DNA of 64,000 nt from Mobula hypostoma (taxonomy: Eukaryota), in the NCBI RefSeq assembly GCF_963921235.1, contig NC_086108.1:79424001-79488000 (forward strand), read 5' to 3'. Below the pieces are notes generated by a model. The model had not been told where the DNA came from and searched no databases. It was given only the letters and a program-made list of their open reading frames with translations. Made by a program: the position numbers and the translations under genes. Each line of letters starts with the position of its first letter. The stretch's first letter is position 1. Below, piece by piece: positions 1,740 through 61,645 of the stretch.

Positions 1740-2050
1740 TATATATAGGCATCCGTTAGTCTCATGAGACCGTGGATTTGTGCCTTGGAAGGTTTCCAGG
1801 GCGCAGGCCTGGGCAAGGTTGTATGGAAGACCAGCAGTTGCCCATGCTGCAAGTCTCCCCTCTCCACACCACCGATGTTGTCCAAGGGAAGGGCATTAGA
1901 ACGCTTACAGCTTGGCACCGGTGTCGTTGCAGAGCAATGTGTGGTTAAGTGCCTTGTTTAAGGACACACACGCTGCCTCAGCCAAGGCTTGAACTAGTGA
2001 CCTTCAAATCACTAGACGAATGCCTTAACCACTTGGCCACATGCCAACAC
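1740..2050 (-). mobile_element. tRNA-derived SINE, family A, copy 1
   Basis: Minus strand: A box TGGCCAAGTGG, B box GTTCAAGCC, CORE-like GTGTCCTT..CAAGGCACTTAACC. 12-bp TSD tccaac(t/c)ggtaa at 1728-1739 and 2051-2062. Homologous to 53880-54186 and 56713-57018. Confidence 0.9.
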
Positions 2051-2329
2051 TCCAACCGGTAAAGACCTTTGTTTTTAAAATATTATTCTTCAATCAATTC
2101 TTCAATGAGATTAAATTTCATTGTTCTGCACTCCTAGACTTGGGACCTGCCATCCAAAAACCCAACTACAATATCTTTGTTACACTGCCTCTGTGGTAAG
2201 AATTTTGTTTTTTCAGTTTAGAAGACCAATACTTTAGTTTTACAGTACTTCACTTGATGTTTAACCATTCCCCCATATAAGTATTGTAAGACATCTTTAC
2301 TCGTATACTCAAATATTCTCTCAATAGAG

Positions 2330-2740
2330 ACCAGTTTACCATTTATTTCCTAATTGCAGGCAGCACCTGCATGTTAGCTTTCAGTGACCTGTGTACAAGG
2401 ACACTGAGGTGCCTTTGAGCATCAACATTTTCTGCCTTTTTAAAAGGTGCTTAGCTTTTCAGTTTGGGACACAAGACACATTATCTTTCCATTTGCCATC
2501 TTCTCATCCGCTCACTTAGATTGTTTATATCCCCTTCAGGACCCAGACTACATCCTTCTTCCTCTTGATCATCCCATATTACCATCTGTAACTATAGAAG
2601 TATATTTGATCCACTTAAAATCAAAATCATTGATATGGACTGTGAGTAACTGGGGTCTAATCGCTGATCCCTATACCATCCACAGACTGCAGTGTGCAAA
2701 CATAGAAAAGACCTATCCATTTCCACTTTTTCTTGTGTGG
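2330..2740 (-). mobile_element. Old CR1 LINE fragment (RT region)
   Basis: Degenerate similarity to the CR1 RT region at 7500-7950 (acaaggacactgaggtgcctttg; gctgatccctat). Confidence 0.5.
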
Positions 2741-3354
2741 ATGTGTATTTTTGCTGGTTGAAATTCTCCGATCATTCCCTCTCCGACTGTTCAGAAATCC
2801 TGCTGGTTCATTGATTAGCACACCAGATAATGCCCTTGGTCTCCCCTAGGTGTCTGATTCCTACACTTCCCTGCAATAGTCTGGTGTACTGAAAACTTTA
2901 TTGTAACACTATATGGCATCTTAAAAATAATTATAAATAGTTGAAGCATTAACATGACTAACATCTGATAGCTTGAGAAACTGCTTGTGCATCACCATCA
3001 AAGTCTTGGGTGTGCTGGATTACTGGAGTTTCACTGTATAAGAAAGCCAGAGCAGGGTAAACAACAACCTCTCTGCCGAACTCTCTCAGTGGGTCACTGA
3101 GTATCTACAAGGGAAAAGGATTGAAACCCTTCATCAGAACCTGATAATATCCTCTTACTCCGACACCCTGCCCCCGCCACCCCAGTAATAGCACCACTCC
3201 ACCAAATCAATAAGCATGACTGGGAACCCACAGCATGAAAATTAAGAAGTTCGTTCATGTTGCCAGCTAGGAATCACTCATTCATCTGTTTCAAGTTGCC
3301 ACAAAAGTTAAGCTGGTTTGTCAGGTTTATTTATTTATTTAATGACTGACTGTC

Positions 3355-3595
3355 TGAGATACGGCGCAGAACAGGCTCTCCGGCCCCTCGAGCCACACCG
3401 CCTACCATTCCCTGATTTAATTCCAGCCTCAACATGGGAAAACTTACACTGACCACTATGTCTCTGGCTCATGGGAGGAAGCCCACACAGATCCGAGAGG
3501 AATGTACAAAGTCCGTACAAGTAATGGCAGGAAGTGAACTGGTGTCGCGTGTACTGTAAAGCGTTGTGCTAACCACTACACCAATGTGCTACCCT
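3355..3595 (-). mobile_element. V-SINE (HE1-like) remnant
   Basis: Minus-strand tRNA-like head GTAGTGGTTAGCAC, V-domain-like ...GTGGGCTTCCTCCCA, and a CR1-like tail gggccggagagcctgttctg. Confidence 0.65.
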
Positions 3596-5413
3596 CATTA
3601 TACCACTGTGGTGCTGATTTTAATTTTCATAAAATTGAAATCAATGTATTTTCTATTTGCCTCAGTTGTTTAGTGGTTTTATATTTTGCCCTCTTGACTT
3701 CGAGCTGCAAGGACTACATGATTCTTATCTTTGGTCCTTGTCTTACTCTAAGGTGGAAATGCTAAGGACTGCTTCACTGCAGATGAGCAACTAATTATCA
3801 TTAATAACTCAATTGAATAATGTTGGGTGTTAAATGTGAACAGCACTTCGGCGCAATGCTGTCCAATTTGTCAGAGTTTACAAGTAACTGAGCTCATAAA
3901 TTAATGATCACTTTGTTAAGTTGCTGGTGGATTGACATTATTTATAGAGCCAAAGATGTACAGCACAACCCCCTGCCCCCCCCCAGGACAAAAAAGGCTG
4001 GGAAAGGTATTTGTATCAGTGATTTCTGTCTTTGTATTAGCTACCTGTGCTTATCTGGCAAGTGATGTGTTTGGAGATTTCTTTTAAAAAAATTTGTCAT
4101 CCATTCCAATTTGAATTGCTGAGATGTATACTTTTAAAGCAGTGGCCTGTGAATAAAATTGCTAATTTTATACGGTAAATTTGTACAAGAAGAAACTCCC
4201 CCTGTAACTTTGAGGTCTAAAGCAGGATTAGAATAGCACGGTTTGAGCTGCGGTCAGCTTAGATTTTAAGCAGTTTGGCAAAGTTAGAGAGAAGGCAACT
4301 GGCAAACCGCATTCTTGGATCAGTTGCCATTAACAGCAACATATTGTGTATGTTGATTCCTTGGCCAATTGAGTTAGTGGTTTGGCTCAAAAGGAGGTTT
4401 TCTAGCGAAATGAAATGGTCTTGCATTCCAAACAGTAAAGTGTTGTGCCTCCATCTGAAGAGCTGGAGATTTAAAGTTGGTTATTATAGCACTTGGGTTA
4501 CTTTATCTTTTTTTTTATTATTCCTGTTTATTTTAGCTTTAAAGCTTGATATTCAATGTGCTCCAATGATATTCATCGCCAAGATTCATGCCACAGGAGT
4601 GCAGCAGATCTGCAGACAACATGATTTTCTTCTATCTTTACAGTGGAGTTGTTTAAAAATTTCAGTTAGGGTTGGGAACACTATATTAATATCCATAATG
4701 TTAGGTTGCTGTATTAGTGTAATGTCATGATGCAGAATCTGGACAAAGTTGATTCACTTCATTTGCTTGCTTCATGTTCTGCCTTTTGGGCAATTCATTT
4801 ATGGTTTTCTACATTTTTATTGCAATGAGCATTTTTTTGATCTATATTAGGTCACTTCCTGTACAGCCAGGAAGTAGTAAGTAGAAAAGCGCAATGGCTG
4901 GCAGTAGGCCGGAGGCTTATGTTAGGAGTGAAATAAGTTTTTAACCAAAAACATCCTGTTATTTACCCAGCAGAAGCATTGCTTTTAAGTTACTGTTATA
5001 TTGTTTAGAAGTTAAGCTTAAGGTAGCAATATGATTTTGCTGAAATAGAATGTCATTTTTGAGTTTATTAGATAATAACCTAGCTGCTAATGGTTTACAC
5101 ATTATTTATTTGTCAGAAACTTATAATATTTACCTGCAGGAAACTTAGCTAAGTTCTTACTTACCTCTGTATATTTACCTGTGTGAATGGAACAACCTGG
5201 TGATTTTACTGTATTTTGTTGTTGTTTCTCTTTTTCACTCCCTACTCAATATGTCATGCCATTAAGTCTGCAATAAAACCAAAGAGCTAGAAGGCTACCC
5301 CATGACTCTCATGTCATTTTTGGATGGAGTTTGGCTGACTGTCTAGTTGATATTACAACACCTCAGCGAGGGCCGTACACTTCACTATTGCTTCTGCTAT
5401 ATTGGAATCTGTA

Positions 5414-6435
5414 CAAGTCAAGTTTATTGTTATTTAACAATATATATGTAAATAACCATATAATGTATATAGAAACGAGGCAGCATTTCGCCAGACCAGG
5501 GTGTAAAGCACAATAGTACACGTAACACACAATAACTTAGGAAAGTAAAGATAAAATCTACAGATAAATCATGCATAAATTACAAACTAGAGTGTATAAA
5601 TTAAATATTGTAAGGTATGGAACATTAACCAATGACACTTTGAATATGATGTGGCTGGGAGCTCAGTAACCTAATGGCCTGAGGGAAGAAACTGTTTCTC
5701 ATTCTGACCATTCTTGTTTTTATGCATCATAGTCTCCTGCCTGGTGGTAGAAAGTCAGAGGATGCTGGATGGATGGCTGGGATCCTTAATGATACTGAAG
5801 ACTCAGCGTACGCAGCAGTCCTGATAAATCTTCCAGATGGATGGTAGGGAGACCCCTATGATCCTCCCTTTATCCCTTGAGGATAAAGGGGAAGCCTTTT
5901 AGGACTGAGATTAGGAAAAACTTCTTCACACAGAGAGTGGTGAATCTGTGGAATTCTCTGCCACAGGAAACAGTTGAGGCCAGTTCATTGGCTATATTTA
6001 AGAGGGAGTTAGATATGGCCCTTGTGGCTACGGGGATCAGGGGGTATGGAGGGAAGGCTGGTGCAGGGTTCTGAGTTGGATGATCAGCCATGATCATAAT
6101 AAATGGCAGTGCAGGCTTGAAGGGCCGAATGGCCTACTCCTGCACCTATTTTCTATGTTTCTATGTTTCTATTCTCACAGTCATTTGTAGGGACTTCCAG
6201 TCCAATGCACGGTTGTTCCCATACTAGATGGAGATGCAATTTGTCAGGATGCTCTCAATGGTGCTCCTGTAAAATACAGTTAAGATGGGGTGGGGAGAGC
6301 TTTGTTCACCTCAATCTTCTTAGGAAGTGGAGGTGTTGCTGTGCCTTGTTCAGGGAAGTGATATTAAGGGACCAGCTGAGGTCATCCATGATGTGAACTC
6401 CCAGGAACTCGGTGCACTTAACTCTCTACTGTGCA
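5414..6435 (-). mobile_element. Rex1/Babar LINE 3' fragment, interrupted by a CR1 tail
   Basis: Starts with a caagtcaagtttattg tail. Contains Rex1-like 'gtcaggatgctctcaatggtgc' and 'ctcaatcttcttaggaagtggagg'. Confidence 0.75.
5876..6170 (+). mobile_element. CR1 LINE 3' end (5'-truncated), nested in Rex1
   Basis: ORF2 C-terminus RKNFFTQRVVNLWNSLP...FKRELD, 3' UTR gggccgaatggcctactcctg, and a (TTTCTATG)n tail. Confidence 0.92.
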
Positions 6436-6573
6436 CTCCAAAAAACTAGTCACCATTCTTGAGGGGTAACTTTTGAAGTGGGTTACAAATTGTTTGAAAA
6501 ATTAAGAATCCGGTATCTGTAGGCAAATCTTTATCAGTGCTGGGGAAAAAAAAACTGTACTTCATCAGATTCT

Positions 6574-6658
6574 AAACACAAGATGCTGGAAATCCAAAGC
6601 AACACACAAAAAGTGCTGGAGAACTCAGCAAGCCGGGCAGCATTTATGGAAATGAATC
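6574..6658 (-). mobile_element. Penelope-like element terminal fragment
   Basis: gatgctggaaatccaaagcaacacacaaaaagtgctggagaactcagc is the reverse complement of the 3' end of the Penelope copy at 39520-40785. Confidence 0.8.
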
Positions 6659-8911
6659 TGCTGTTCTCCATGAATCATTTGAAGAGCTGACTAGTTTGTC
6701 ACTTAAAGTTCTATATTGTTTTCAGGTTGTCACTATGTATTTGATTATCCATTTAGTATTTATGCCAGTGTTAATAAAATTGTTTTACTCCATCCGAAGC
6801 TTCTTTTTCAACTGAAAATGTATATAATATTGCTGTTGATATTGAAGTTATGTTTAAAAAAAACAATAAGACTGGTTTTAAAATAAGTTAGGTGTGTTTC
6901 AGTATTTTATTCTTCTTTCCCTACTCAACATCACAGAGTTTAACATCATTGACAAAGCCATAAGACCATAAAATATAGGAGCAGAATTAGGCCATTTGGC
7001 TCGTTGAGTCTGCTCCACCATTTCATCTTGAATGATCCAATTTTCCTTTCATCCTCTGTCTTAAATATACATAAATATTTAGGCTCCACAGGTGCCTGTG
7101 GCAAGGAATTCCATAGATTCACCACTCTCTGGCTAAAGAATTTCCTCCTCATCTCCATTCTACCAGGATGCCCTTCTATTCTGAGGCTGTGTCCTCTGGT
7201 CTTAGACTCTCCCATCATAGGAAATATCCTCTTCACATCCACTCTATCAAGGCTTTCACCATTCAATAAGTTTCAATGAGGATTCTTATGAATTCTAGTG
7301 AATACAGGCCCAGAGCCATCAAATGCTCTTCACGTGACAAGCTATTGAATCCTGGAATCATTTTCAAAAAAACCTCCTTTGAACCCTTTTCATTTTCAGC
7401 ACATCCTTTCTAAATTAAGTGGCCCAAACCTGCTTACGTTACTCGAAGTGTGGCCTTACCAGTGCTTATAAAGTCTCAACATTACATCCTTAGTTTTACC
7501 GTATATTCTAGTCCTCTTGAAATGAATGCTAACATTGCATTTGCCTTTCTCACCACAGACTTAACCTGCAAATGAACTTTTAGGGAATCCTGGATGAGGA
7601 CCCCCAAGTCCCTTTGTGCCTCAGTTTTCTGTATTTTCTCGCCATTTAGAAAATAGTCAGCACTTTCATTTCTTCTACCAATGTGCACGACCATACACTT
7701 CCCGACACTGTATTCCAACTGCCATTTCTTTGTCCATTTTTCTAATCTGTCTAAGTTCTTCTGTAGCCTCTCTACTTCCTCAAAACTACCTGCCCCTCTC
7801 CCTATTGCCATATTGTCAGCAAACTTCAATTCATCCAAATTATTGACATATAACGTATAAAGAATTAGTCCCAACACAGACCCCTGTGGAACACCACTAG
7901 TCACCAGCAGTCAACCAGAAAAGGCTCCCTTTATTCCCACTCTTTGCCTCCTGCCAATCAACCACTGCTTTATCCATGAGAGAATCTTTCCTGTAATACT
8001 ATGAGCACATAGCTTGTTAAGCAGCTACATGCATGGCACCTTCTCAAAGGCCTTCTGAAAATCCAAGATCACAAGATCAATCAATTCTCCTTTGTCCTGT
8101 TTGTTATTTCTTCAAGAATTCCAACAGATTTGTCAGGCAAGATTTTCCCTTGAGGAAAGCATGCTGACCGTGGCCTATTTTATCATATGCCTCCAAGTAC
8201 CCTGAGACCTCATCCTTAATAATCAACTCCAACATCTTTGCAACCACTGAGCTCAACCTAACTGGCATATAGTTTCCTTTCTTCAACCTTTCTCCCTTCT
8301 AGAAGAGAGGAGTGACATTTGCAATTTTCCAGTCTTCTGGAATTATTCCAAAATCTAGTGTTTCTTTAAAGAATCATTACTAATGCCTCTACAATCTCTT
8401 CATCTACCTCTTTCTGAACCCTATGGTGTATACCATCTGGTCCAGGTGATTTATCTGCCCTCAGACCTTTCAGTTTCCCAAGAACCTAAACTCTAGAAAT
8501 GGTAACTTCATGACCCCTGATACCTGGAACTTCCACCGTCCTGCTACTGTCTTCCACAGTGAAGACTGATTCAAAATACTTATTCAGTTCGTTCGCCATT
8601 CTGTTGTGCCCTTTCACTACCTCTCCAGCTTCATTTTCCAGCCCTGCAATATCCGCTCTTGCCTCTCTTTCACACTTTATGTATCTGAAGAAACTTTTGG
8701 TAACTTTTAAAATATTATTAACTAGCTTACTTTCGCATTCCATCTTTACCTTCTTAATGACTTTTTTAGTTGCCTTCTGTTAGGTTTTAAAAGCTTCCCG
8801 GTCTATGAATTGTGCTCTATTACAGGTCCCCTCTTTGGCTTTGACTTCTCTTGTTAGCCACAATTATGTCATCTTGCCTTTAGAGTACTTCTTTCTCTTT
8901 AGGATTTATAT

Positions 8912-9616: not shown

Positions 9617-10878
9617 CAGAATCAGGTTTATTATCACCAGCATGTGACATGAAATTTGTTAACCTAGCATCAGCAGCAGTTCAATGCAATATAGAATCTA
9701 GCAGAGAGAGAGAAAAAAAATAAAACATAATAAATAAACAAGAAAATTAATTACGTATATTGAATAGATTTTTTAAAAATGTGCAAAACAGAAATACTGT
9801 ATATTTTTTTTAAAAAAGTGAGGTAGTGTCCAAAGCGTCAATGTCCATTTAGGAATCGGATGGCATAGGGGAAGAAGCTGTTCCTGAATCACTGAGTGTG
9901 TGCCTTCAGCCTTCTGTATCTCCTACCTGATGGTAACAGTGAGAAAAGGGCATGCCCTGGGTGCTGGGGGTCCTTATTAATGGACACTGCAGTTCTGAGA
10001 CACTGCTCTTTGAAGATATCCTGGGTACTTTGTAGGCACGTACCCAAGATGGAGCTGACTAGATTTACAACCTTCTGCAGCTTCTTTTGGTCCTGTGCAG
10101 TAGCCCCTCCATACCAGACAGTGATGCAGCCTGTCAGAATGCTCTCCATGGTACAACTATCGAAGTTTTTAAGTGTATTTGTTGACATGCCAGATCTCTT
10201 TAAAGTCCTAATAAAGTATAGCCGCTGTCTTGCCTTCTTTATGACTACATCAATATGTTGACGCCCAGGAACTTGAAGCTGCTCACTCTCTCCACTTCTG
10301 ATCCCTCTATGAGGATTGGTATGTGTTCCTTCATCTTACTCTTCCTAAAGTCCACAATCAGCTCTTTTGTCTTACTGACATTGAGTGCCAGGTTGTTGCT
10401 GTGGCACTATTCCACTAGTTGGCATATCTCACTCCTGTACGCCCTCTCATCACCACCTGAGATTCTACCAACAATGGTTGTATTGTCAGCAAATTTATAG
10501 ATGGTATTTGAGCTATGCCTAGCTCAGTCATGTGTATCTAGAGAGTAGAGCAGTGGGCTAAGCACACACCCCTGAGGTGCACCAGTGTTGATCGTCAGCG
10601 AGGAGGATATGTTATCACCAATCTGCACAGTCTGTGGTCTTCCGGTTAGGAAACCAAGGATCCAATAGCAGAGGGAAGTACAGAGGCCCAGGTTCTGCAA
10701 CTTCTCAATCAGGATTGTGGGAATGATAGTATTAAATGCTGATGTGTAGTCGATGAACAGCATCCTGACGTATGTGTTTGTGTTGTCCAGGTGGTTTAAG
10801 CTGTGTGGAGAGTCATTGAGATTGCAGCTGCAATTGACCTATTGTGGCAATAGGCAAATTGCAATGGGTCCAGGTCCT
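9617..10878 (-). mobile_element. Rex1/Babar LINE, 5'-truncated, nested in CR1
   Basis: RT motifs [15 protein letters not shown] and [14 protein letters not shown] (10524-10763). C-terminus HPGHALFSLLPSGRRYRRLK (9889-10188). tcagaatcagg tail. Confidence 0.92.
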
Positions 10879-12884
10879 TTTAATACAATGTATACCCTTG
10901 AACATAAAGCTCTGAGGTATAATCTCCTGTCAGCCATGATTCACTGATGCCTATAACATCATACGTGCCAATCTGCAAGTGTGCTACAAGTTCATCTACT
11001 TTATTCCATATACTGCACGCATTCAAATACAACACCTTCAGTCCTGTATTCACCCTTTTTGATTTTGTCTGCCTTTTATGTCGCAACTCATCCTGTTGAC
11101 AGCAATTTTGCCCTGTCAACAGCTTTTCCTCACTACACATTGCTTCTGTTTGTAAACCATCTACCTCATCTTCAGCACTATTATCCGCTTTTCCTACAAT
11201 ACTCTTGCATTGAAGTGTATGCAGCTCAGGACACTAGTTGTACCATGCTCAATCTTTTGATTCCTGAGTTTGTCTGAGGTCTTACCAACATCTGTCTTCA
11301 CAACCTCTCCACTCACTGTTCTGGCATTCTGGTTCCCTTCCCCCTGCAATTCTAGTTTAAACCCCGCCTTGCAGTGTTAACAAACCTTCCCATGAGGATA
11401 TTAGTGCCCTTCTAGTTCAGGTGCAGACTGCTCCATCTGTACAGGTTCCACTTTCCCTGGAAGAGAGCCCAATGATCTAAAAATCTTATGCCCTCCCTCC
11501 TACACCAACTCCGTAGCCACGTATTAAACTGTATAATCTTCCTAGTTCTGGCCTCACTAGTGCATGGCATGGGTAGCAATCTTGAGATCACAACCTTGGT
11601 TGTCCTGCCCTTTAAATTAGCACCTAACTCTCTATGCAGAACCTCGTCACTCGTCCTACCCTTGTCATTGATACCTACATAGACCACAACTTTTGGTTGT
11701 TCACCACAGTATGCCTCTTCTCCCTCTTCCCTTCTGAGCTGCAGAGCCCGACTCAGTGCCAGAGACCTGATCACTGTGACCTTTCTCTGTTAGACCAACA
11801 CCCGCAACAGTGTCCAAAGTGATAGAGCTGTTGTTGAGGGGGATGGCCACAGGAGTACTCTGCACTGGCTCCTTAACCGCTTTCCCCTTCCTGACTGTCC
11901 CGTCTCCTGTGTCCTGCACCTTGCATGTAACTACCTCCTATCTATCCCCCCTCAACCTCCCAAGTGATCCAGAGTTCATCCAGTTCCAGCTCCAGCTGCT
12001 TAACACAGATTGTTAGAAGCTGCAGCTGGATGTACTTCTTGCAATTGCAGTCGTCAAGGACACTGAAAGTCTCCCAACTTTCCTTCATCCCACCAGAGGG
12101 GCATTCCATTTTCTTCTCTTTTGCTTTCTCTGACTGAAGCCTCAAAGAACTAATCCCTCACTATCACCACTCTGACTCTGTCCACTCAGACAACTGCTGC
12201 CCTTGCCCCTCCCTGCCTTGCCTCTTGCTAATCAATCCCAAATGCTAGTTGGTTGCTGGTCAAAGCTCTTTTTCGCTGTTGTGAACTACTGCTGATTTTT
12301 CTACTTGGACAATGGACCTGAGTGAAATCCCTTCCTCAAAATTTCTGATGTATGGAATGGTTGCTGATCAAAGCTCTTTTTTATGTGTAATGAAAGCCCT
12401 AGCTTTGGATTTGATACACTGAATAGAATTTGCTGTTACGATGTCAAACTGCTGTTTAAAAATGCTAGCTGGCAAAAAAATGACAAACCATGCGGCAAAA
12501 TCAGACTTACTCACCATATACCAGCAGGCCCTAGGACCAGAAAGAATTCCATCTATTGAAAGTAGAGCTTGATTATGAAACTAATCAAGTTGTTCATTAT
12601 GAAAGAATATTCTTCATAATTGCCTGTTGATTCTTTAGGAAATGGGAGCAAGCCATTCAGCTCCTCTTGGTTTGGATCATGGTTCATGTACATCTTGCTC
12701 AGGAACTCACCTTTGTTCCATTTTGATATTCTTACCAAACAAAAGCTCATCGTTCTCTGTCGTGGAGCATCCACAGACATTTGGTACCATTTGAACTCTT
12801 AGCTGTAGTGGTGGAATATAAATGCTCCAGAATTGATCACACCAAAAGCTGTGCGCTTTCGCTGCTGTGTATTGTTAGGCAGAT

Positions 12885-30127: not shown

Positions 30128-32326
30128 ATGTTTTTTTTGGGCATTTCTTTGGGAGAGTTCTCTTGCCCTATGCAAGCAGCCAGCAACTTCCTGTCGTCTA
30201 TCATGCAGGTCTTAGACGACGGCAAGCGGGAGAGTCTGGATCAGCCACTGACCCTGGACGAGCTGACAGGCTCCATCCGTTCCTTTGGGTCGGGTAAGAC
30301 TCCCGGAAGCGACGGCTTACCGGCTGAGTTGTACTCGGCTCTGTGGGACTGGATGGGCCCAGACCTGCTGGAAGTGTACAACGCTATGCTTCTGGCCGGC
30401 AGTATGTCTGAGTCCATGAGGAAGGGCATCATCACCCTCATCTACAAGCAGAAGGGGGAAAGGGAGGAAATTAGAAATTGGAGACCCATCTCTCTCCTGA
30501 ATGTGGATTACAAGATCCTGTCCAAGGCTATCACCAACAGGGTCAAGTCTGCTCTGGGACAGGTGATCCACCCGGACCAAACCTGTGCTGTACCGGGCAG
30601 GAAGATCTCAGACAGCCTCGCGCTGCTGAGGGACACCATCGCCTACGTGCAGGACAGGGGGGTGGACGCCTGCCTGGTCAGCTTGGACCAGGAGAGAGCC
30701 TTCGACAGGATATCGCACACGTACATGGCGGACGTGCTCTCCAAAATGGGATTTGGGGAGGGAATCCGGAATTGGATTAGACTGCTCTACACAGACATCT
30801 GTAGTGCAGTCCAGGTCAACGGGTGGGAAACAGACAGCTTCCCCATCAGGTCTGGAGTCAGGCAGGGCTGTCCCCTCTCCCCTGTCTTGTTTGTCTGCTG
30901 CATAGAACCCTTTGCGGAAGCCATCAGGAGGGATGAGGGCATAAGAGGGGTGACGCTGCCAGGCAGTGGAGGGACCCAAGTGAAAACCTCCCTGTACATG
31001 GACGACGTCACCGTCTTCTGCTCTGATCCGAGGTCAGTTCGCAGGTTGATTGGCACCTGCGAACAGTTCGAGCTAGCGTCGGGGGCCAGGGTCAACCGCA
31101 TGAAGAGCGAAGCCATGCTCTTCGGCAACTGGCCTGACCGATCCAGTGTCCCCTTCACCATCAGGTCTGACCACGTGAAGGTGTTGGGGATCTGGTTCAG
31201 AGGGGCTGAGGCGTGCAACAAGAACTGGCAGGAGCGGACTGCCAAGGTGAAACAGAAACTGGGACTGTGGGGAGGGCGCTCCCTGTCGATAATGGGCAAG
31301 AACCTGGTCATCAGGTGTGAGGTGCTCTCAGGGCTGCTGTACTTGGCGCAGGTCTGGCCCGTCCCCCGCTCCTACAGCTCAGAAATCACCCAGGCTGTCT
31401 TCAGATCCGTCTGGGGATCCAAGATGGAGCGGGTGAGACGGACCGTCATGCACAAGTCCCTGGACAACGGGGGCAAGAACGTCCCCAATGTTGCCCTCAC
31501 CCTGATGGCCAGCTTCATATGTGGCTGCATCAGGTTGTATGTAGAACCCAGGTATGTGGGCACCAAGTACCACTATGTGCCCAGGTTCTACCTGTCGCCC
31601 TGGCTACGAAGGATGGGTCTGGCCCCACTCCCGCGCAACGCCCCAGTCAGCTGGTCGTTGCCGGCATACCTGTCCTACGTAGCAAAGTTCTTCCAGGAGA
31701 ACGCCTTTGACCACAGGGCCATCAGGTGGTGGTCGGCACGTAGTGTCCTGCAGGCACTGCAGGAGAAGGATGTGATGGACACAGTGGGGTGGTTCCCTGA
31801 GCAGACTGTCCAGTTCATCTGGCAAAATGCCTCATCGCCAGATCTCACCAACAGGCACCAAGACCTCGGCTGGCTGGCGGTGAGAGGGGCCCTCCCAGTC
31901 AGAGCCCTCCTGTACGCCCGGAACGTCGTCTCCGCACCCCACTGCCCACGGGAGGACTGCAGTGAGGAGGAGTCTGTGACCCACCTCTTTGTACACTGCC
32001 AGTTCGCAAAGAGGGTGTGGAGGAGGATAGACAGTCTAGTGTCACATTTCATCCCCAGCAGCTGCGTAACAGAGGACTCTCTGATCTACGGGCTGTTCCC
32101 GGGGATGCACACGGAGACCAACATCCGGTGCTGCTGGCAGATCATCAACTCGGTGAAAGACGCTCTTTAGTCGGCCCGAAACTTGATGATCTACCAGCAC
32201 ATGGAGATGTCCGTGGGAGAATGCCGCCGACTGGCACATTCTCGGCTGCAGGAGTACGTGCTGAGGGACGCACTGAAACTCGGTGCAGCCACTGCAAGGG
32301 CCCGGTGGGGAAGGACCACAGTATGA
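30128..32326 (+). pseudogene. Tx1 ORF2 remnant: reverse transcriptase plus CCHC zinc-binding domain, no endonuclease, premature TAG at 32168-32170
   Basis: Motifs PGSDGLPAELY, NWRPISLLNVDYKIL, LDQERAFD, GVRQGCPLSP, YMDD and CPREDC..ESVTHLFVHC. The frame continues after KDAL* (W expected) as SARN..RARWGRTTV* to 32326. Confidence 0.92.
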
Positions 32327-35699: not shown

Positions 35700-38600
35700 A
35701 AATAGAATCAGAGTGTTTTGAGGCAGCAGTACATCGCAATACATAAAACTATAAATTACAATAAGAAATATACTGTGTATTAATGTATGTGTGTATATAA
35801 AATAAAAAAGGAAAGGTACGTTGCATCCGGAGTGTGTCTGGTTAGCGGATGATTTCCCTTCACGCCTCTCTGACGTAGTGGGGAACCATGTACGAGGCAA
35901 GTTATAGCAGTGGTTTTCCATTGCCTTCTGCTGGGTGAGTTTCCAAGAGATCATCAGCTCGTAACCCAGGATGGATGGAAAACATGCAGGGGAGCTGGCT
36001 GGATTTGAACTTGGGACCTTTCGTCCTGAAGTCCGGCACTGATGCCACTCCGCCACCAGCCGGGACCATGTATATAAAATAAGTAGTGCAAAAATAGAGA
36101 AAAAAATGGAGAGGTAGTATACATGGATTCATTGTCCATTCAGAAATCTGATTGCAGGAGGGTAGAAGCTGTTCCTAAAATGTTGAGTGTGTGTCTTCGA
36201 GCTCCTGTACCACCACCTTGAAATGGGCACGTCCTGGGTGATGGGGGTCTTTAATGATAGGTGCTGCTTTTTTGAGACATCGCCGTTTGAAGGTGTCCTC
36301 AATACTGGAGAGGCTATTGTCCATGGTGGAGTGGTTGACTTTGCAACTTGCTGCAGTCTTTTCTGATCTTGTGCAGTGGCCCTTACATACCAGATAGTGA
36401 TGCAGCCAATTAGAATACTTTCTACGGTACATCTGTAGAAATTTGCAAGAGTCTTTGTGACATACCAAGTCTCCTCAAGCTCCAAATGAAATATAGCCTC
36501 TATCATGCCTTCATTGTAATTAGCATCAGTATGTTGGTCCTAGGATAGGTCTTCAGAGACGATGACACCCAGGAACCTGAAACTGCTCACACTTTCCTCT
36601 GCTGATCCCTCGATAAGGGCCTGACTTCTCCTTCCTGAAGTCCACAACTAATTCCTTGGTCTTACTGCTATTGAGTGCAAGGTTGTAGTTGCGACACCAG
36701 TTAAGCAGCTGATCTCTTTTACTTCTGTAGTCCTCCTCATCACCGTCTGAAATAGTAGTGTGTTTGGCAGATTTATAGATGACATTTGAGTTGTGCCTAG
36801 CTTCACGGTTCTGGGTGTAGAGAGAGTAGGGCAGTGGGCAAAGCATGAAGTGTGACAACATTGATTGTCAGCGAGGAGGAGATGTTATTTCCAATCTGCA
36901 GAACTGTGGTCTCCCGATATGGAAGTCAAGGATCCAGTTGCAGAGGGAGGTGCAGAGGCCCAGGTTTTGGAGCTTGTTGATTACTATGAAGGGTATGATG
37001 GTATTGAACGTTGAGCTGCAATCAATGAACAGCTGTTTCGCCTAGGTACTGTTATCGTCTAGGTGATCCAAAGCCAGTGAGATTGCATCTGCTGTAGACC
37101 TACTGTGATGATTGGCAAAATGCAGTGGGTCCATGTCCTTGCTTGGGCAGGAGTTGATTCTGGCCATGACCAACCTCTCAAGCATTTCATCACAGTAGAT
37201 GTGAGTGCAACTGGCTAATAGTCATTGCGGGAGCTCACCCTGCTCTTCCAGGGCATTTGTCGCCCCATTTAAAGCAGGTGGGAAACTCCCATTGCAACAA
37301 TAAGAGATTGAAAATGTCCTTGAACAGTCCCACCAGTTGGTTGGCATAGGTTGTCGGTCCCCTAACAGGTGCATCAACACCATGATGCCTTGTGAGAGTT
37401 GACCCTCATAAAAGATGCTCTGACATCGGACTCCTAGTCAGAGATTACGGGGTCACCAGATGCTGCAGGGATTTGCACAGGTTTAGTTTTTTTCTCCCTT
37501 TCAATGTATGCATAGAAGGCATTTACCTCATCTAGGAATGAAACAGCACAGCCATTCGTGAGGTTAGGTTTTGCCTTGTAGGAAGAAATGGCCTGCAAAC
37601 CCTGCCTGCCAGAGTTGACATGATTCTGTTTCTAACTTCAATTGGAGTTGTCTTATAGCTGTTAAAATATTCTTCCATAGATCATACCTGGACTTCTTGT
37701 ATAGTTCTGGGTCATCGGTCTTGAATGCCGCAGATCTAGTCTTCGGCAGACTACAAATCTCCTGGTTCACCCATACCTTTTTGTTTGGGCATGTCTGGTA
37801 TGTTCTTGAAGGCATATAATCATCCACACAGGTCTTGATAAAGTCAGTGATAACTCTGCTGTATTCATTCACATCTGAAGATGAATCCCTGAATATCATG
37901 TAGTTCACCAACGCAAAGCAATCCTGAAAAAGCAACTCTTCCATCTCCCTTGACCACGTACTCTTGGTCCTCACCACTGGTGGTGCAGTCTTTCATCTCT
38001 GGCTGTACACTGGGAGTAGAAGTGCAGCCAGGTGATCAGACTTTCCAAAGTGCAGGCGTGGGATGGTGGTCAAACTGTGATCAAAATGTCGGCTCTTCTG
38101 GTTTCACAGGTGATGTGTTGGTGGTAATTGTTCAGAGACTTTTTAAAGCTGACCTGATTGAAATCCCCTGAAAGGATAGGGAAGGTGTCAGCATGCACTG
38201 ATTTGTGACTTCTGATCACGGTGCTCAGCTCCTCCAGTGCCTGCCTGACATTGGCCTGAGTTGGATTGTACACCGCTACGAGGGTGATGGTGGAAATCTC
38301 TTGTGGTAGGGAAAATGGACAACACAACCAGTAGATGTACCAGGTTGGTGAGCAGGACTGAGACAGAACCATCACTTCTGTCCACCACAATGAGTTACTA
38401 ATGAAGCATACTCCCCCTCCTCTATCTTTAAAAGACTCACTGACCTGTCTTTGCGGAGAATGGTGAAGTCATTGGGCTGCAGAGCAGCATCCAAGATCAC
38501 AGGATTGAGCCATGTTTCCGTGAAGCAAAATACACAACAGTTCCTAATATCCCTCTGGTACTACAATCTTGTTCTGAGGTCTATAATTTTATTTTCCAGA

Positions 38601-49370: not shown

Positions 49371-49799
49371 GGAATCATTGAATATTGTCCCTTCTAGATA
49401 TGCTTTCTTACCCCTGTCCTGTTAACCATGGGACTGCACCTTGTGCGTGCATTCTGCCAGCCCTGCTCATTATGTTCCCATCTCCCCTCCAGCCTTGAGC
49501 TGCCTTTACACTTGATTGCTTCCTTACATTTGGTACTTATTGTTTAGGTTTCCAGTGATTCCCTGTGTATAAGGCTGTCTGGCAGCTCTTAATAATTCCC
49601 TTAATCATTTAGCAAATTCTGTTTTCTTGCTCGCATTTTATTTTACTTGGATGGAAGAAGGAGTATAACAGGTAAACGGTGATACAGGGACATTTATGTT
49701 TGTTTTCAGTTGGCATACAGCAGTTACTTGGTATGTTTCTTTAAACCATTTGGTTTCAAACAATGCTCAAAGAAGTGACAAACTTACCTTCAATCTTAA

Positions 49800-50025
49800 G
49801 CAACACACTCAAAATGCTGGAGGAACTCAGCAGGCCAGGTAGGATCTATGGAAAAGAATAAACAATTCACATTTCAGGCTGAGACTCTTCGTCAGGACAG
49901 AAGAATCACGGCCCAAGATGTTGACTGTTTACTCTTATCCATAGATGCTGCCTAGCCTGCTGAGTTCTTTCAGAATTTTGTGTGTTGGCTTGGATTTTCA
50001 GCATCTGCAGAATTTTTCATGTTTG
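49800..50025. mobile_element. Inverted pair of Penelope termini
   Basis: caacacactcaaaatgctggaggaactcagcaggc versus gcctgctgagttctttcagaattttgtgtgttg. Confidence 0.88.
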
Positions 50026-50330
50026 CTTTCAATCTTTTTATGTCTGTTTACTTCTGGGACATCCTAATGCTAACTGACTTTCTGCTTTCCCATGGCAGAG
50101 AGAAAATTGTATACAGGTCGACCTTCATTAATCTGACTACCTGTAATCCGGTTCCTTCGATAATCCACACTGATTTAAAATTTTCCGCGCAACTGTAATT
50201 TCAAATTCTCCGGGCCACCATACCAATCGCATTGTTTTGGTTGTGCTAGATCTGTTCATGTGTTGCTGCGCTCTTGTAAGCACAGACAGGCGATTCCTGC
50301 TTGTTTTCCTGCATTTATAAATATCATTTG

Positions 50331-50483
50331 CGTGAGGCGCGGCGGCCCAGCACCTGCCCGTCTCACCCGCCAGCGGCGGGGGAGCTGGCGCGCGCTGGGT
50401 CAGTCCACCCTCTCACCCGCCTGCCAGCAGTCGCACACTGCCCTCCAGCATCGCCTGGCCAGCGCTCCGTTCTCTTCTGCCTA
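50331..50483 (+). other. Probable rDNA ITS2 3' portion
   Basis: Very GC-rich 153-bp segment directly abutting the 28S 5' terminus. Confidence 0.7.
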
Positions 50484-50578
50484 TGACCTCAGATCAGACG
50501 TGGTGACCTGCTGAATTTAAGCATATTACAAAGCGGAGGAAAAGAAACTAATGAGGATTCCCTCAGTAACTGCGAGTG
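50484..50578 (+). rRNA. 28S rRNA 5'-end fragment (orphan pseudogene, 95 nt)
   Basis: TGACCTCAGATCAGACGTGGTGACCTGCTGAATTTAAGCATATTACAAAGCGGAGGAAAAGAAACTAATGAGGATTCCCTCAGTAACTGCGAGTG matches the conserved vertebrate 28S start, with CpG>TpG changes. Confidence 0.95.
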
Positions 50579-50616
50579 CAATGTAGCCTTTGGGGTAACT
50601 GCAAAACTGCAAAATG

Positions 50617-50707
50617 GAGAATGGATCAGCTCATGATAAAATGGCGGAGCAGACTCGATGGACCGAATGGCTGGCTTCTGCTCCTTTGTCTTATGGTCTT
50701 ATGGTCT
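50617..50707 (+). mobile_element. CR1 extreme 3' tail inside the Tigger-like element
   Basis: aatggcggagcagactcgatggaccgaatgg..tcttatggtcttatggtc. Confidence 0.85.
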
Positions 50708-50968
50708 TTGCTATCGCTTAGCTCACGCTTGAGTGCTGATAGTGGGTGCGCTTTATTTTTGCCAGTGGGGAGGGGGGGATTGTTACTTGCTGCCGCTTAC
50801 GCGCGGGAGGGAGGGAAGTGGGGGGGGGAACTTAGGGGTTCTGACATTTAACTGTCGTTCCTTTTTTGGGGCACTCCTCTGTTTTGTAGATGGTTGCGAA
50901 GAAAAAGCATTTCAGGATGTATATTGTATACATTTCTCTGACATTAAATGAACCTTTGAATCCTTTGA
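50708..50968 (+). mobile_element. 3' part of a retroposon with a Rex1-type tail
   Basis: G-rich body ending catttctctgacattaaatgaacctttgaatcctttga (short tandem tail). Confidence 0.55.
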
Positions 50969-53879
50969 TATTTTAAAGGTATGATGAAGCGGTTAGCTAT
51001 TGCTTCATGTGATCCTTCTGTAATTCGGCATTTTCACTAATCCGGCACTCCTCAGGTCCCAATGGTGCCAGATTATAGAAGGTTGACCTGTAGTTAAATA
51101 TTCTTCTCTGTAACTGTAGGGAGGATATTGGGCCATGCCAATAGTTATTAGGGCTGGTGAACATAAACCTGGTCAGAGATTTTTTGGAATGTCTGAAGCT
51201 GGCATTGATAGAACTTGAATACAAGGCAGCCAATAGTGAAATGTAGAAAATTATTGATACTCAAGGTGCTTAAATTTGGAATTTGCAGAGAACTGAGAGT
51301 TCAAGACGGGAGGCAGACCACAAAGGATTTGAAATCACTGAAGAATTTTCAAACTGAGCTCAGTAACTGAGCAGGAATCAGTATGAGGGCATTACAATCT
51401 GACAACAAAGGAAACTGAATAACTGCAGACTTCTGAGGTGTCTTTGATGTTGAATTAAATTTACTAATCTGCACTTTTTAACATCAATTCTTTTACTTTG
51501 ATTAACTGAAAAAAGACATTGTCTGTTGCTCATTTGTATAACATACCACATTCACTAAGTTTCCTTACATCTTCTGTCTTTCTCTGAAATGGAAAAAGTT
51601 AATTTATTGCAGGTTGTGTGTATCCGTGCTCTTCAGCAGCTTCTGTTGTTTTAAAATGGTGAAAAGATTCAGTTTTGTAGGCAGAGCTAAAAAACCTAAA
51701 AATTCTTCAGTGGCCATTGAGAGGTACACTTTGTGCCACTTCAAAGCAAATTATGTATGAAATTTAGACCAGGCAAATCCAGTGATGAAGTGCAAGTCAG
51801 AGAGGACCTGCAATCAGGGATTGGATCATCAAGTTAGGATTGGGTCTGTGGTTGGAATTTACTGGAGAATCAAAGGCCAGGCTTGGAAGCTGGGGTCAAG
51901 TTGGAGCATCAGAGCAACAATTTTTGAAGGATTGATGCATCACATGGATAGGGGTTGGGTGTGTGTAGATAGATCATCGTAAATGGAGCTTTGTGTGAGG
52001 GAAGCAGTCATGCTAGAGAATCAACACTCTGAGTGGTGTTGTCTTGGACATTTGGGGTTAGTGACAGAGTGTACTGTTTGTTTTGGAAGGGGTTTCCTAA
52101 GGAAGCTATGCTAATAAGAAAAGGTCTTAACTGAGCAGGGTATGAAGTTTGCTCAGGGAAGCTTTCTTTAAGTAACACCTCCAACAGTAAAGCAACACTG
52201 CTTAAAAGACATAGTTTTTCAGATAGCATTCAGTGAATTACATGGTTCAGAACTATGCAGGTTAACTTTTCCTGCCGCACAATAGAGGGAGAGAGTAGCA
52301 ATAGTGGCAATGGTGATGTTTTTGGGTGCTTCGTGAGGTAAATGTGATGCTCACGCAAAGGTGCTACTCTGACATCACCTACCAAACCCAGAATCGAGAA
52401 GGACACGGGCTTCTTGGGAACACTGCACCCTACACAATCCCCTGCATCCTCATTGTCGCTATATCTTAATTTTGGAGTTCACTGCCCAACAGAGTATTTT
52501 CAGCAAGAGGGTTATAGTGGTGAAGGACTGCAGCTAGGACCATCTTTTCACGACCAATTATTGTTAAGGAATAAATCCTTTCTTTGTCAGGGACAGTAAG
52601 AACACTGCCCTCCACCCCCCCGGAAAAAAAATTATGGCTACTCAGAGAGAAGCCAGTATTTATTTAAGTAGGCTAAATCTGTTGTCCCAGGGTTGGTTAA
52701 GAGGTCTCTTTATGTTGGTTGGTGATTGCACATTTATTGGAAAACCTTGCAACAAATGACAATGTAGGTGCAGTTTCTGCAATATGTAGCTGATGTTTTT
52801 GTCTCATTGTTGGCATTTAAGCATTTTGGCAAACCACCTTAGAAGTAAGAATTGAAACTAGTGCTGTGTAAATTTCAGATTAGCAAAATAATCAGGATGT
52901 AAAGGATTTGCAAAAGTGGGATTTGTAGTATTTACGAGGCAGGCATCGACAAATGCCATCTCCCACAGGAAACACAGTTAGGTATTCTAAACTTGAGGAA
53001 AACACTATATTTACTCCTGTGCACTCCCCATTTGGTTTGCTGCTTAATATTTTTTAGCTTTCAATTTTATCAATAAAACCACTTTGTGACTATGGTTATG
53101 CTGCATGTTAAAATATTTGATGGAAGCCTCCAAAGGGTGATGTCATCAGAGAGGTTCTGGAAATGGCAGATCAGCATTGCAGGGAAACAATTAGTTATTT
53201 GTATTTGGAGGCTGTGTTTTGTAGAGCTTAGATACATTATTAATGAAGCATTTAGCAATTACGATAAATTAATCTGCTCTTGAGAGTGTTTGCTCAGGTA
53301 AGATGCCTTATTAGCATATCTGATGGATCTGCTGTCAGGTACTGATTAAACCAGTCGCCGTCGGAGACTCTCTTGGGATAACGATGAATAAAATGTTGAT
53401 ACAATAGAGAATTTTTAATTTTGGGGGTAGTTTTGAGAAAGGACTATCTGACCTGTGAAGATTTCGGCATTAATCGACTATGTTTGTGCAGAGTTGTTAC
53501 ATATTTCTTTCTCTTTCCGTTTTCCTCTATCTTAAAAAAAAATCTTAGGAAGCCTGCTGCACACTGAATATCATTTGGATATTTTGTTTGACATGACTTG
53601 ACATTAATGCTTTAATGGTTATAGTCGAGCGATTTTTGGCAGAATCCCACGAGTTTTTTTTCAATGTTGCTGATAAAATTTTGATTCTAACGTACTTTAA
53701 GCAAAATTTCTCTTTATTGGTTTAGTGATTAAAATATAATTTTAAAAAGTACACTTAAAATTATATGTACCATTCTGCACATTTGCATTAACTATTCTAT
53801 TAGGTTGGATTGCATAAAGAAATGCAAAGACATGCTGCAGAACATTGTCAACAGATTTTAAGTGTATTTAATGATATTT

Positions 53880-54186
53880 GGGCACGTGGGCACGTGGTTA
53901 AGGCATTGGACTAGCGATCTGGAGGTCGTGAGTTCAAGCCCCAGCTGAGGCAGTGTGTTGTGTCCTTGAGCAAGGCACTTAACCATACAGCGCTCTGCGA
54001 CGACACTGGTGCCAAGCTGTATCGGCCCTTGCCCTTCCCTTGGACAACATCAGTGTCGTGGAGAGGAGAGACTTGCAGCATGGGCCACTGCCGGTCTTCC
54101 ATACAACCTTGCCCAGGCCTGCGCCCCGGAGAGTGAAGACTTTCCAGGCACAGATCCATGGTCTCGCAAGACTAATGGATGCCTTA
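53880..54186 (+). mobile_element. tRNA-derived SINE, family A, copy 2
   Basis: Homologous to 1740-2050. B box GTTCAAGCC. Perfect 14-bp TSD atttaatgatattt at 53866-53879 and 54187-54200. Confidence 0.92.
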
Positions 54187-55749
54187 ATTTAATGATATTT
54201 TGCATGTTTGTTGAAATATCTTAGTAATATTACTGGGGTAAATCTCATCAATCCCAAATATGCTTCGTTTGTGTCCCAATCTATGGAGAATTATCAAGAT
54301 TAGTACAGACTAAAGAAATAATACCTGTGCTAATGCTCAAAATGGGTACCAATCTTGATTGGGTAGTGATAGGAATGCCTATGTGTTTTGCATCAGAACG
54401 TTTTGCTGGGTAATCCTTAAGCCATGTAGGCCGTCAAAACACTAAGTGAGTTTTTTATGTAATGCAGAATGACAAACCAGTTGAAATTGGGAAAGGAAGA
54501 ATGTGCCGTTATTTATTGCCACATCTTCATGACAGTTCAAAGTCACAGAGAAAATGTGTCATCCAATTTACCTGCAGCAAAGGATAAGATGATCTGTCTG
54601 CTTTAGGTTGAAAATGGGAATGTTTTCAGAGGGGCACTGTAAATCTTTGCAGTTTCTGTTTGCGTAGTCCAGTGGATCTGAACTTTCCTGTCTCGTGTGT
54701 TGACAGACAGGCTCTTATCTAAAAGATAACCACAGCCCCGACACCTCACCACCCCATCCCCACCCCCCAAACCTCCTTCACCCTGCCAGTCTACAATCTG
54801 CAGTCAGGTTTATATCCAGATTTGTAAACACTACCAATGAAACCAAACTGACATTGATTTAGCACCATTGAGGAAGCAGCACTAATAAAAATGTTTTTTT
54901 ATATGCCTTCAGACATTCAAAATTCAGGCATTCCAAGCCAACAAGATAGATTGTTAAATTTGTTCTGATAACTGGCTTTGTAAATGCATTGTGAGTGAGG
55001 TCCTGAAAGACTCATTCTGTATAACAGCACTGTGATTGCATTTGGCTTTTGTAACCTTCATCCGGGGAGGAGATAAATCAGTGAGGATTCCCATCTGCAT
55101 TGCTGTCTATCAATCCTGTTGAAAAAGACACATATGTAGGTTGAGTAGCAGGAGTGGGTTTGACTATGATTTTGTTTCTCACTTCCTGAGTCCCTGGCTG
55201 ATGCTCACTATCTAAATTTGCACATGAAGAATTATATTCACAAAAAAATACTGGTTACTGACATGCATCAAAATAGATGCAGCAATAAAAGAAATAAAGA
55301 CAAAATATTAAAGGAGAGACGGAGCAGTGAAGAGCTATTCTAAATGAATAAACTAAAATCAACAACAAAGGAAAGGGTGGCCAATGAGTATTGCAGCTTT
55401 TACAATACTTCTCTCGAGACAAGATGGCCAGCTGGTAAAATCACTGGTTCCAGGCCATTAAATGGAGCTGTTTTCAGAGGCTGTGGGTAACTTTGGCATG
55501 ACATTAACTTTAAATAAAATGTGAAATTCTAATGGGAAAATTGGCCTTTGAAGACAGTGTGGCATTAAAAATGTCCATAGAACAGTTGTATGCTCTGAAA
55601 TTCATGAAACCAAAGGATGAAGCACTACTTCGGATCATTCGTCATGAATTATATTTGTTGCATGCAAGAGAGTTCTCTAAAAGTTGCCACCAGAAGAATG
55701 GTGGGGGTAGGGTGGGGTGGGGAATCTCGTTGAAACCTGTCAAATGTTG

Positions 55750-56088: not shown

Positions 56089-56712
56089 ATAATTCTTGTG
56101 TTGTGTAAGTACCAAATAATCTGACTTCATAGTATGTTAAAATAATGACAGAGGTGAGGCTTTTTGGTTCACTGAGTGTGTGGGCATTGAAAAAGACCCT
56201 ATAGCACTTAGTCATGGCTTTTCTGGTTTCATCTAGGGACTGTGTTTATTCCTCAAATTCCATTTGTGGTAGTGTGTTCCAGTCCTCTACTGCCTTCTGG
56301 GTGAAAGTGTTTTCTATTTCCTTACCTCCTTCCTAATCCAGCCACCAGTTACCACCCCCTGTTTTTTTGGTCCATTTATTTACTCTTTCTGGGACCTTTG
56401 TTGCAGTGTACACCTCAGTTGTACGGTATCTGTCGCTGGCCCTTAGTGAAGGAAACGAGCCTGTAGAGTATTAGAGTTCTAACGCACAGAAGCTGGTCCT
56501 TTGGCCCATCTAGTCCATGCCAAACATCCATCTGTACTTTAACCAATCTTTTCTCATAGTTTTCCAATCCTGGGCACATATGTATAAATCTCCACTGCAT
56601 CCCCTATTGAGCAACTGCATGTTTTCTATAATATGGTGACCAGAACGTTGTGCGGTATTGAAGCTATAGTCTAACAAGGGTTAGTCGTTTTATAGCTGTT
56701 AAAATAAATTAA

Positions 56713-57018
56713 ATAGGCATCCGTTAGTCTCATGAGACTACGGATTTGCACCTTGGAAGGTTTCCAGGGCGCAGGCCTGGGCAAGGTTGTATGGAAGACC
56801 AGCAGTTACCCATGCTGCAAGTCTCCCCTCTACACGCCACTGATGTTGTCCAAGGGAAGGGCATTAGGATCCATACAGCTTGGCACTGGTGTCATCGCAG
56901 AACAATGTGTGGTTAAGTGCCTTGCTCAAGGACACAACACGCTGCCTCAGCTGAGGCTCGAACTAGCGACTTTCAGATCACTAGACCAACGCCTTAACCA
57001 CTTGGCCATGCGCCAACA
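56713..57018 (-). mobile_element. tRNA-derived SINE, family A, copy 3
   Basis: Very similar to 1740-2050. A box TGGCCAAGTGG, B box GTTCGAGCC. Confidence 0.92.
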
Positions 57019-60994: not shown

Positions 60995-61645
60995 AAACGA
61001 CGCCAACAAGACCAAGATATTGATAGTGGCCTTCAGGAAATGGAAGTCGGGAGAACACCAACCAGTCCTCTTTGAGGGGTTGGCAGTGGACAGGGTGAGC
61101 AGCTTCAAGTTCCCGGGTGTCAACATCTCTGAGGATGTGGTGAGGACCTAGAATCACAAAGAAGGCACACCAGCAGCACTACTTCATCAGGAGTTTGAGG
61201 AGATTGGTATATCACCAAGACGTGTAGAATTCTGTAGGGGTATGGTGGAGAGCATACTGAATGGTTGTATCACATCCTGACATGGAGGCTCCAGTGCACA
61301 GGATCACAAGAAGGTTCAGGGGGTTGTGACTCAGCTGGCTCGGTGACAGGCACAACCCTCCACACCATTCAGAACATCTACTAAAGGCAGTGTATCAAGA
61401 AGGACTCTCATCCATCTGGGGCATGCCCTTTTCTCATTACGACCATCGAGGAGGAGATGCAGGAGTCTAAAACCCACAGTGATTCAGACCATTTTAAGAT
61501 TTCTGGGTGGTCCATGAACATTAACTCATTCATTCTTTTTTTTTGCACTATTTATTTACTTTATAATTTATAGTAATTTAATGTTTTTGCCTTGTACTGC
61601 TACTGCAAAGCAACACATTTTCCATCGTGCAAGATCCCGATTCTC
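60995..61645 (+). mobile_element. Rex1/Babar 3' fragment
   Basis: caacaagaccaag, gagcagcttcaagttcccgggtgtcaacatc, gagagcatactgaatggttgtatcac, gggcatgcccttttctc. Confidence 0.85.

Follow-up and report, generated by a model that had tools for sequence, protein, structure and literature searches.

Structure and surroundings of the element

The element occupies 50112-51092 of the window, by which we mean the whole 64,000-nucleotide stretch of DNA that was analysed. Two transposon arms with terminal inverted repeats (TIRs) enclose the end of an ITS2 and the start of a 28S rRNA gene, a short spacer and the tails of two retroposons (Table 1). The window itself is repeat-rich, non-coding-looking vertebrate DNA of about 40% GC with repeats of a ray-like kind, and no second copy of the element was found within its 64 kb.

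Table 1. Features of the element. Organism C is one of three organisms whose public sequencing runs were used.
Feature	Position	Strand	Remarks
Left TA (target-site duplication)	50112-50113	.	Read in the sequence; right partner at 51091-51092
Left TIR, 24 bp, CAG start	50114-50137	+	20/24 against right TIR
Left arm, Tigger-type	50114-50329	+	Three TAATCCGG-like repeats; 50114 to about 50177 common with a MITE of about 155 bp
ITS2 3' end, about 154 nt, CpG-decayed	50330-50483	+	73% GC; P0001/P0002 match from about 50329-50332 onward
28S rRNA, first 95 nt	50484-50578	+	Rfam RF02543, E 4.9e-13; P0002 44/51 aa over 50424-50576
Spacer, 33 nt, short tandem duplication at 3' end	50579-50611	+	In at least two other copies
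CR1-type LINE tail, 5'-truncated	50612-50708	+	Five further copies in window; loose ends at 50616 and 50708
Second retroposon, 3' part with short tandem tail	50709-50968	+	Depth about 10,000 rising to about 960,000 toward 3' end; loose ends 50949-50968
Right arm	50969-51090	+	TAATCCGG-like repeats at 51021 and 51038 facing the TIR; 51001-51090 common with the short MITE
Right TIR	51067-51090	-	20/24 against left TIR
Right TA	51091-51092	.	Organism C orthologous flank match ends exactly there

A preliminary description of this locus had noted CAG-starting TIRs of 24 bp that agree in 20 places, a TA on either side and subterminal TAATCCGG-like repeats, and all of these are present in the sequence. 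The repeats lie at 50129, 50144 and 50161 on the left and at 51021, 51038 and 51075 on the right, and the inverted-repeat listing gives the TIR pair as 24 nt at 88% when counted from the TA. Inverted pairs anchored on a TA and agreeing in at least 21 of 24 letters within 5 kb number eight in the real window, as against none in any of ten block-shuffled windows; the remaining seven sit in interspersed repeats. A 14-letter TIR pattern, scanned over the window, gave two matches where 0.78 were expected, and since 15 of 100 shuffles also reach two, this pattern is poor evidence when taken alone. The element had also been described as lacking a transposase, and indeed none of its six scanned frames matched Pfam at the set thresholds.

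The two retroposon tails that had been recognised inside the element were likewise confirmed, the first by its other copies in the window and the second as a very high-copy, 3'-biased repeat. One copy of the first tail, which we take to be CR1/HER1, lies directly downstream of a reverse transcriptase-like frame at 7482-7910. This tail is probably a later nested insertion into the present copy rather than cargo of the family. Contigs that carry letters other than those of the window cross the second tail into the right arm (50933-50988) in all four public runs described below, and the second tail may therefore be a second cargo in a subfamily. A protein search with the frame running through spacer, CR1 tail and retroposon returned 42 candidates, none significant.

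Several other repeats were observed in the surroundings. Just left of the element, two copies of a very common short repeat lie head to head (49798-50025) and form an inverted repeat of 86 nt at 79%. An Rfam match to MIR869 falls on this pair, and like a match to ST7-OT4 it lies far under the gathering score; both were rejected. In a GC-rich block at 30128-32170 (plus strand), an open frame of 680 aa contains RVT_1 and zf-RVT domains; it is a fairly intact LINE ORF2, presumably Tx1-like. Three copies of a repeat of about 310 bp, 83-90% alike, lie at 1742-2049, 53881-54201 and 56701-57018; we assume that it is SINE-like, and ARAGORN found no tRNA gene in these copies. The 3' part of an old LINE occurs in four copies that are 66-77% alike, three of about 1.1 kb (134-1240, 9812-10879 and 36101-37181) and one partial (61021-61487).

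The rDNA fragment and its join to the left arm

The earlier reading of a GC-rich, ITS2-like segment followed by the first 95 nt of 28S was borne out in both parts. The Rfam model for eukaryotic large-subunit rRNA (LSU_rRNA_eukarya, RF02543) matches at 60 bits with model positions 24-103 at 50507-50585; by the model alignment the 28S begins at 50484, and good agreement lasts to 50578, which gives the 95 nt. A whole-window Rfam scan at gathering level had missed this piece. The segment before it was recognised through a protein collection, queried with a chance open frame at 50179-50511. A word-index search gave one match among five candidates, P0001 (E 2e-15), a spurious open reading frame on a contig of 11,176 nt, with a sister frame, P0002, on a contig of 11,175 nt; these contigs are probably true rDNA units. 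P0001 matches from about 50329-50332 to 50508 and beyond this continues as the start of an intact 28S; the first 100 residues of P0001 show no relation to the left arm. By this homology to a probable rDNA contig, together with its base composition, we identify the GC-rich segment as ITS2. Host sequence that is not itself transposable-element sequence thus lies between the TIRs, as it does in Pack-TIR elements.

A full HMMER search with the same frame returned three matches, P0001 and two weak ones, P0003 (E 3.5e-4) and P0004 (E 6.2e-4), both on ENA contigs of about 400 kb. The weak matches cover the left arm only (50170-50331 and 50227-50334) and represent diverged, cargo-free relatives of it that part from the window at 50331-50334. 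The onward sequence of P0003 could be the start of a decayed transposase; profile and protein searches found no transposase there. Since the rDNA matches start and the cargo-free arm relatives stop at the same few bases, the join is pinned to 50330-50332 from both sides, and at 50329-50334 the peptide matches from the two sides share about one codon. The left join had been placed within 50310-50350, which stands and is here refined; at the other end of the rDNA, where a second junction had been named, the 28S match ends at 50578 and a separate piece, the spacer, follows.

From 50329 on, P0001 and the window differ in 15 residues, and CpG decay can account for nine of them, a count for which no baseline was computed. 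The fold of the ITS2 was rejected as evidence, because a long hairpin formed but its z value was only 0.10. The cargo comes without a promoter region and is decaying, and on these features it is best read as a functionless passenger.

Probable affiliation with the Tigger transposons

The preliminary description had assigned the element to pogo/Tigger, and this assignment is supported, by end structure only, through the TA flanking both TIRs, the CAG start and the TAATCCGG repeats. The TIRs are short (24 bp, within the limit of 40 bp) and of type 1, with Tigger-type end motifs, and the orthologous flank in organism C ends at the TA. Compared by eye, the ends resemble those of four Tig1-like Tigger entries (TA, TIRs of 23-26 bp and repeated TAATCCGG) and the layout of the right arm is that of the Manduca Tig1-like end. 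According to the available part of the source (PMC7386202), the Tig1-like Tiggers of arthropods (Ceratitis, Manduca, Papilio and Polistes) likewise have a TA target-site duplication and a CAG-starting TIR of 23-26 bp that holds TAATCCGG, with the motif repeated subterminally; the Ceratitis TIR agrees with that of the element in 17 of 24 letters with one gap, by eye. Those Tiggers are described there as autonomous, with a DD33-34D transposase, whereas the present element has none. The sole cartilaginous-fish Tigger entry seen in the supplement of the same paper has a different TIR, and no Tigger entry in the accessible part of the Gao et al. (2020) supplement begins with the TIR of our element.

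A partner transposase (CENP-B_N/HTH_Tnp_Tc5 plus DDE_1) was found neither in the frames of the element nor in the onward part of P0003, which is a weak test. The TIR pattern had no match in metagenomes and a shorter version had 14, none extending beyond 21 nt; two further TIR-pattern matches in viral contigs were judged to be due to chance. Taken on its ends, the element would behave as a non-autonomous Tigger.

Other copies in public contigs

Contigs of four public runs from three organisms (four of the 23 runs listed) were aligned to 50020-51370 at 80% likeness. The runs contain 79-83% (organism A), 56% (organism B) and 12% (organism C) of sampled window words, and the two runs of organism C are one sample. 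In the right flank, organism A differs from the window in none of 306 letters, organism B in four of 308, and organism C in 23 letters and three gaps over 269. The depth, which is not a copy number here, is 8.5-10 in the flanks, 2,700-8,500 in the left arm, 2,000-6,100 in the ITS2 part and 2,300-4,600 at 50988 in the right arm; at the left TIR bin it goes from about 10 to about 46,000 in organism A. Contigs with a letter other than that of the window number, per run, 44-56 at 50410 in the ITS2, 33-89 at 50208, 50266 and 50319, and 19-62 at 50988. The organism A run lacks the letters of its own locus at 50530 and 50988, which a human-match filter or an allele may explain.

Pieces were listed for the 32 longest of about 95,490, and 28 of these cover 50143-50605. 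Their divergence from the window over the arm-rDNA region is 11.8-18.6% (median 15.6), and the listed pieces, being the longest, are also the most diverged. The join between arm and ITS2 is bridged by at least 31 letters on each side in 18 of them, two from organism A, four from organism B and six from each run of organism C, all at single-copy depth (5-18). Twelve of the bridging pieces, all from organism C, extend at least 31 letters into the 28S, and because the two runs are one sample these rows stand for about six loci. As for the rest, five pieces cross the join by 17-30 letters, one record (two rows) has arm and 28S with a variant stretch between them and three begin within the ITS2. 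None of the 28 breaks off at the join with letters left unmatched. One organism C contig runs over 50143-50533, from the subterminal repeats into the 28S.

With bridging copies in organisms A, B and C, the join of arm and ITS2 is a trait of the family, and several copies share the same cargo join, as in multicopy Pack-TIRs. Whether the rDNA had moved with the element was the central question of the preliminary description, and these diverged copies in all three organisms lean clearly to the answer that it did. Other copies do exist and do carry the rDNA, the two points on which the proposal had been made to hang.

The family members differ to the right of the 28S piece. The spacer was found in an organism A contig to 50599 and in an organism B contig (depth 2 only) to 50605, each about 15% off the window, whereas three organism C contigs depart from the window at exactly 50578 and continue for 99, 101-195 and 850 letters. 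By these results there are at least two subfamilies, the older of which may hold more of the 28S. In organism C the ITS2 cargo also occurs in forms whose central part has been deleted or replaced (joints 50337-50382, 50337-50419 and 50342-50427), one of them at about four-copy depth. Among the contigs and joints listed, none connects a 28S piece with a right arm in any copy but this one and none crosses the whole stretch from TIR to TIR, and both TIRs with the target-site duplication were seen in this copy alone.

At 50410 a single high-depth contig makes up 1,377 of the depth of 2,014 in organism B and 2,008 of 2,716 in organism C, if it covers that place. These contigs may be real rDNA, in which case about 64-70 single-copy equivalents are left. 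At least dozens of copies is a safe figure, and hundreds are possible.

The insertion site and a short cargo-free MITE

The orthologous contig of organism C matches 51091-51359 and ends at the T of the right TA, beyond which 122 further letters do not fit the right TIR. The left flank bin of the same organism is covered at a depth of 11.8-12.7, about single-copy. An empty TA site in a relative had been suggested as a check on the insertion, and the right flank, stopping at the TA, agrees with it; a joint from left to right flank was not among the joints listed for organism C, so that the empty site is read from one side. The locus is thus apparently empty in organism C. Since this organism has the cargo-bearing family and apparently no insertion here, the simplest reading is that the present copy arrived loaded.

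Joints that connect 50162-50167 with 51001 in organisms A and B indicate a cargo-free MITE of about 155 bp with the same ends. The TIR bins are about nine-fold deeper in these two organisms than in organism C. From the greater depth of the short MITE in A than in C we conclude that transposase acting on these ends was still at work once the lines had split, and the difference points to a burst of the MITE in one lineage.

Proposed origin and spread of the family

We consider it quite probable that the locus holds one copy of a multicopy, non-autonomous pogo/Tigger family (Tig1-like) with a built-in rDNA fragment, the end of ITS2 and the start of 28S, as a passenger. An internal part of a Tigger would have been replaced once by rDNA from 50330-50332 onward; the position of the join is observed, and the mechanism would most likely be template switching while a gap was repaired or the DNA replicated. 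Tan et al. propose template switching for multicopy Pack-TIRs (PMC8277862, in the available part of the text). A reverse-transcribed piece of pre-rRNA is an alternative source of the cargo. The derivative, keeping both ends and the binding repeats, would then have been multiplied in trans by Tigger transposase, reaching dozens of loci or more before organisms A and B split from C or at about that time. This copy would have entered a TA in the line of A and B with the cargo already aboard, as the apparently empty site suggests, and later the CR1 tail would have been inserted and the whole copy would have decayed as methylated DNA. In a bolder version, which seems to us rather doubtful, the vertebrate cut-and-paste family would number several hundred copies and have dispersed rRNA-coding DNA through the genomes of rays, an older subfamily carrying a longer 28S. 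The cargo, co-oriented with a retroposon tail that part of the copies have in common, would have come from reverse-transcribed pre-rRNA and then been passed to the DNA transposon, a route from RNA by way of a DNA transposon to rDNA pseudogenes.

Multiplication of the arm-ITS2 join by a route other than transposition is unlikely; the copies would then be segmental or tandem duplicates, or decayed units of an rDNA array that had once taken in part of a Tigger, and both ends would be present only in this copy or in a few. Such a history would fit with the fact that no second copy is visible end to end, and the organism C contigs that continue past 50578 could be running through further 28S. However, copies 12-19% apart at single-copy depth do not suit a homogenised array, the contig counts at 50988 in the right arm are comparable in magnitude to those in the left arm, and this copy has both TIRs and the TA in unique flanks that are apparently empty in organism C.

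Perhaps the spreading unit was instead a retroposed chimera, made of pre-rRNA or an element transcript with a retroposon tail and copied by a LINE reverse transcriptase, which the TIRs merely frame. The ITS2-28S piece and both tails are co-oriented, and the non-window contigs at 50988 extend 46-56 letters each way, up to about 36 nt into the second tail, in organism C as well. Yet the boundary of the insertion in organism C is the TA outside the right TIR and not a tail, and other copies run from within the left TIR region into the cargo, so that we regard this reading as very improbable. The cargo itself may be of retro origin, but spread of the entire unit by retroposition does not agree with these observations.

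A single event in which rDNA entered a MITE already resident here, giving a single-copy Pack-TIR by gap filling, had been held equally open in the preliminary description. It would be the usual case in animals (four multicopy Pack-TIRs are given in the available text of Tan et al., PMC8277862) and cargo-free arm relatives and a short cargo-free MITE do exist, but it is largely refuted and has hardly any probability left, given the same join in at least six organism C contigs, two of A and four of B and an organism C that seems to be without this locus.

Comparison with known elements

The statements in this section follow those parts of the cited sources that were available. Pokey and mPok of Daphnia (piggyBac; Elliott et al. 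2013, PMC3849761) are also a DNA transposon family carrying sequence of the rDNA unit, namely 200-bp IGS repeats and an ITS2 piece of about 48 bp. Pokey uses a TTAA site in the 28S, resides in the rDNA and exchanges cargo with it (mean divergence 5.3%), and its cargo is non-coding spacer. In contrast, the present element targets TA and lies in unique DNA of a vertebrate host, and its decayed cargo includes 95 nt of rRNA-coding 28S. Neither a fixed TTAA site in 28S nor a cargo kept in step with the rDNA was found here: the TA site lies in single-copy flanks and the copies are 12-19% apart, with decay of the CpG type.

The multicopy Pack-TIRs of Tan et al. (2021, PMC8277862) are also TIR elements that enclose host sequence and moved afterwards, with TcMariner among the two commonest carriers. 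There are four multicopy cases in 100 genomes, an example having three copies, whereas here the cargo is rDNA and the copies are at least dozens; the main text of that paper, as far as available, mentions neither rDNA, rRNA nor shark. The MER6/MER6A MITE (PMC6887750) is likewise a TA-flanked, non-autonomous element of Tc1/mariner type with a 24-bp TIR, in which a foreign sequence captured once gave hundreds of vertebrate copies, although its cargo is a V-SINE and not rDNA. SINE28 (Longo et al. 2015, PMC4994717) is also a vertebrate mobile element with 28S sequence. It is, however, a retroposon from the 28S 3' end, Pol III-transcribed and present at 27 human loci, while we find 28S positions 1-95 with ITS2 inside TIRs, and neither a 28S 3'-end head nor retroposon ends of the kind that rRNA-headed SINEs have.

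Novelty and significance

Scattered rDNA signals in fish are often attributed to transposons from co-localisation alone. Among the literature matches listed, no vertebrate DNA transposon with 28S cargo was found; Repbase, Dfam, the supplementary list of Tan et al. and bioRxiv supplements could already include the family. A term search of elasmobranch genome papers, within the text available, returned no mention of Tigger, and the table of rDNA-bearing elements in a 2024 review (PMC10946416), as far as accessible, has a single DNA transposon, Pokey, and none from vertebrates. A Tigger family that carries rDNA is probably undescribed so far.

If our reading is true, it provides evidence at the level of sequence for a vertebrate cut-and-paste element that multiplies a fragment of rDNA, coding part included, in copies that far outnumber the multicopy Pack-TIRs on record in the available text of Tan et al. 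(PMC8277862). Such copies can inflate estimates of rDNA copy number from read depth and confuse the annotation of rDNA.

ITS2 assays with a reverse primer at the 28S start are in use for sharks, and faint pseudogene bands have been reported. The site of this primer presumably falls in the 95-nt 28S piece, and the copies may yield side bands in such assays. The copies would also preserve an old ITS2 end, which can be compared with the ITS2 of the present day.
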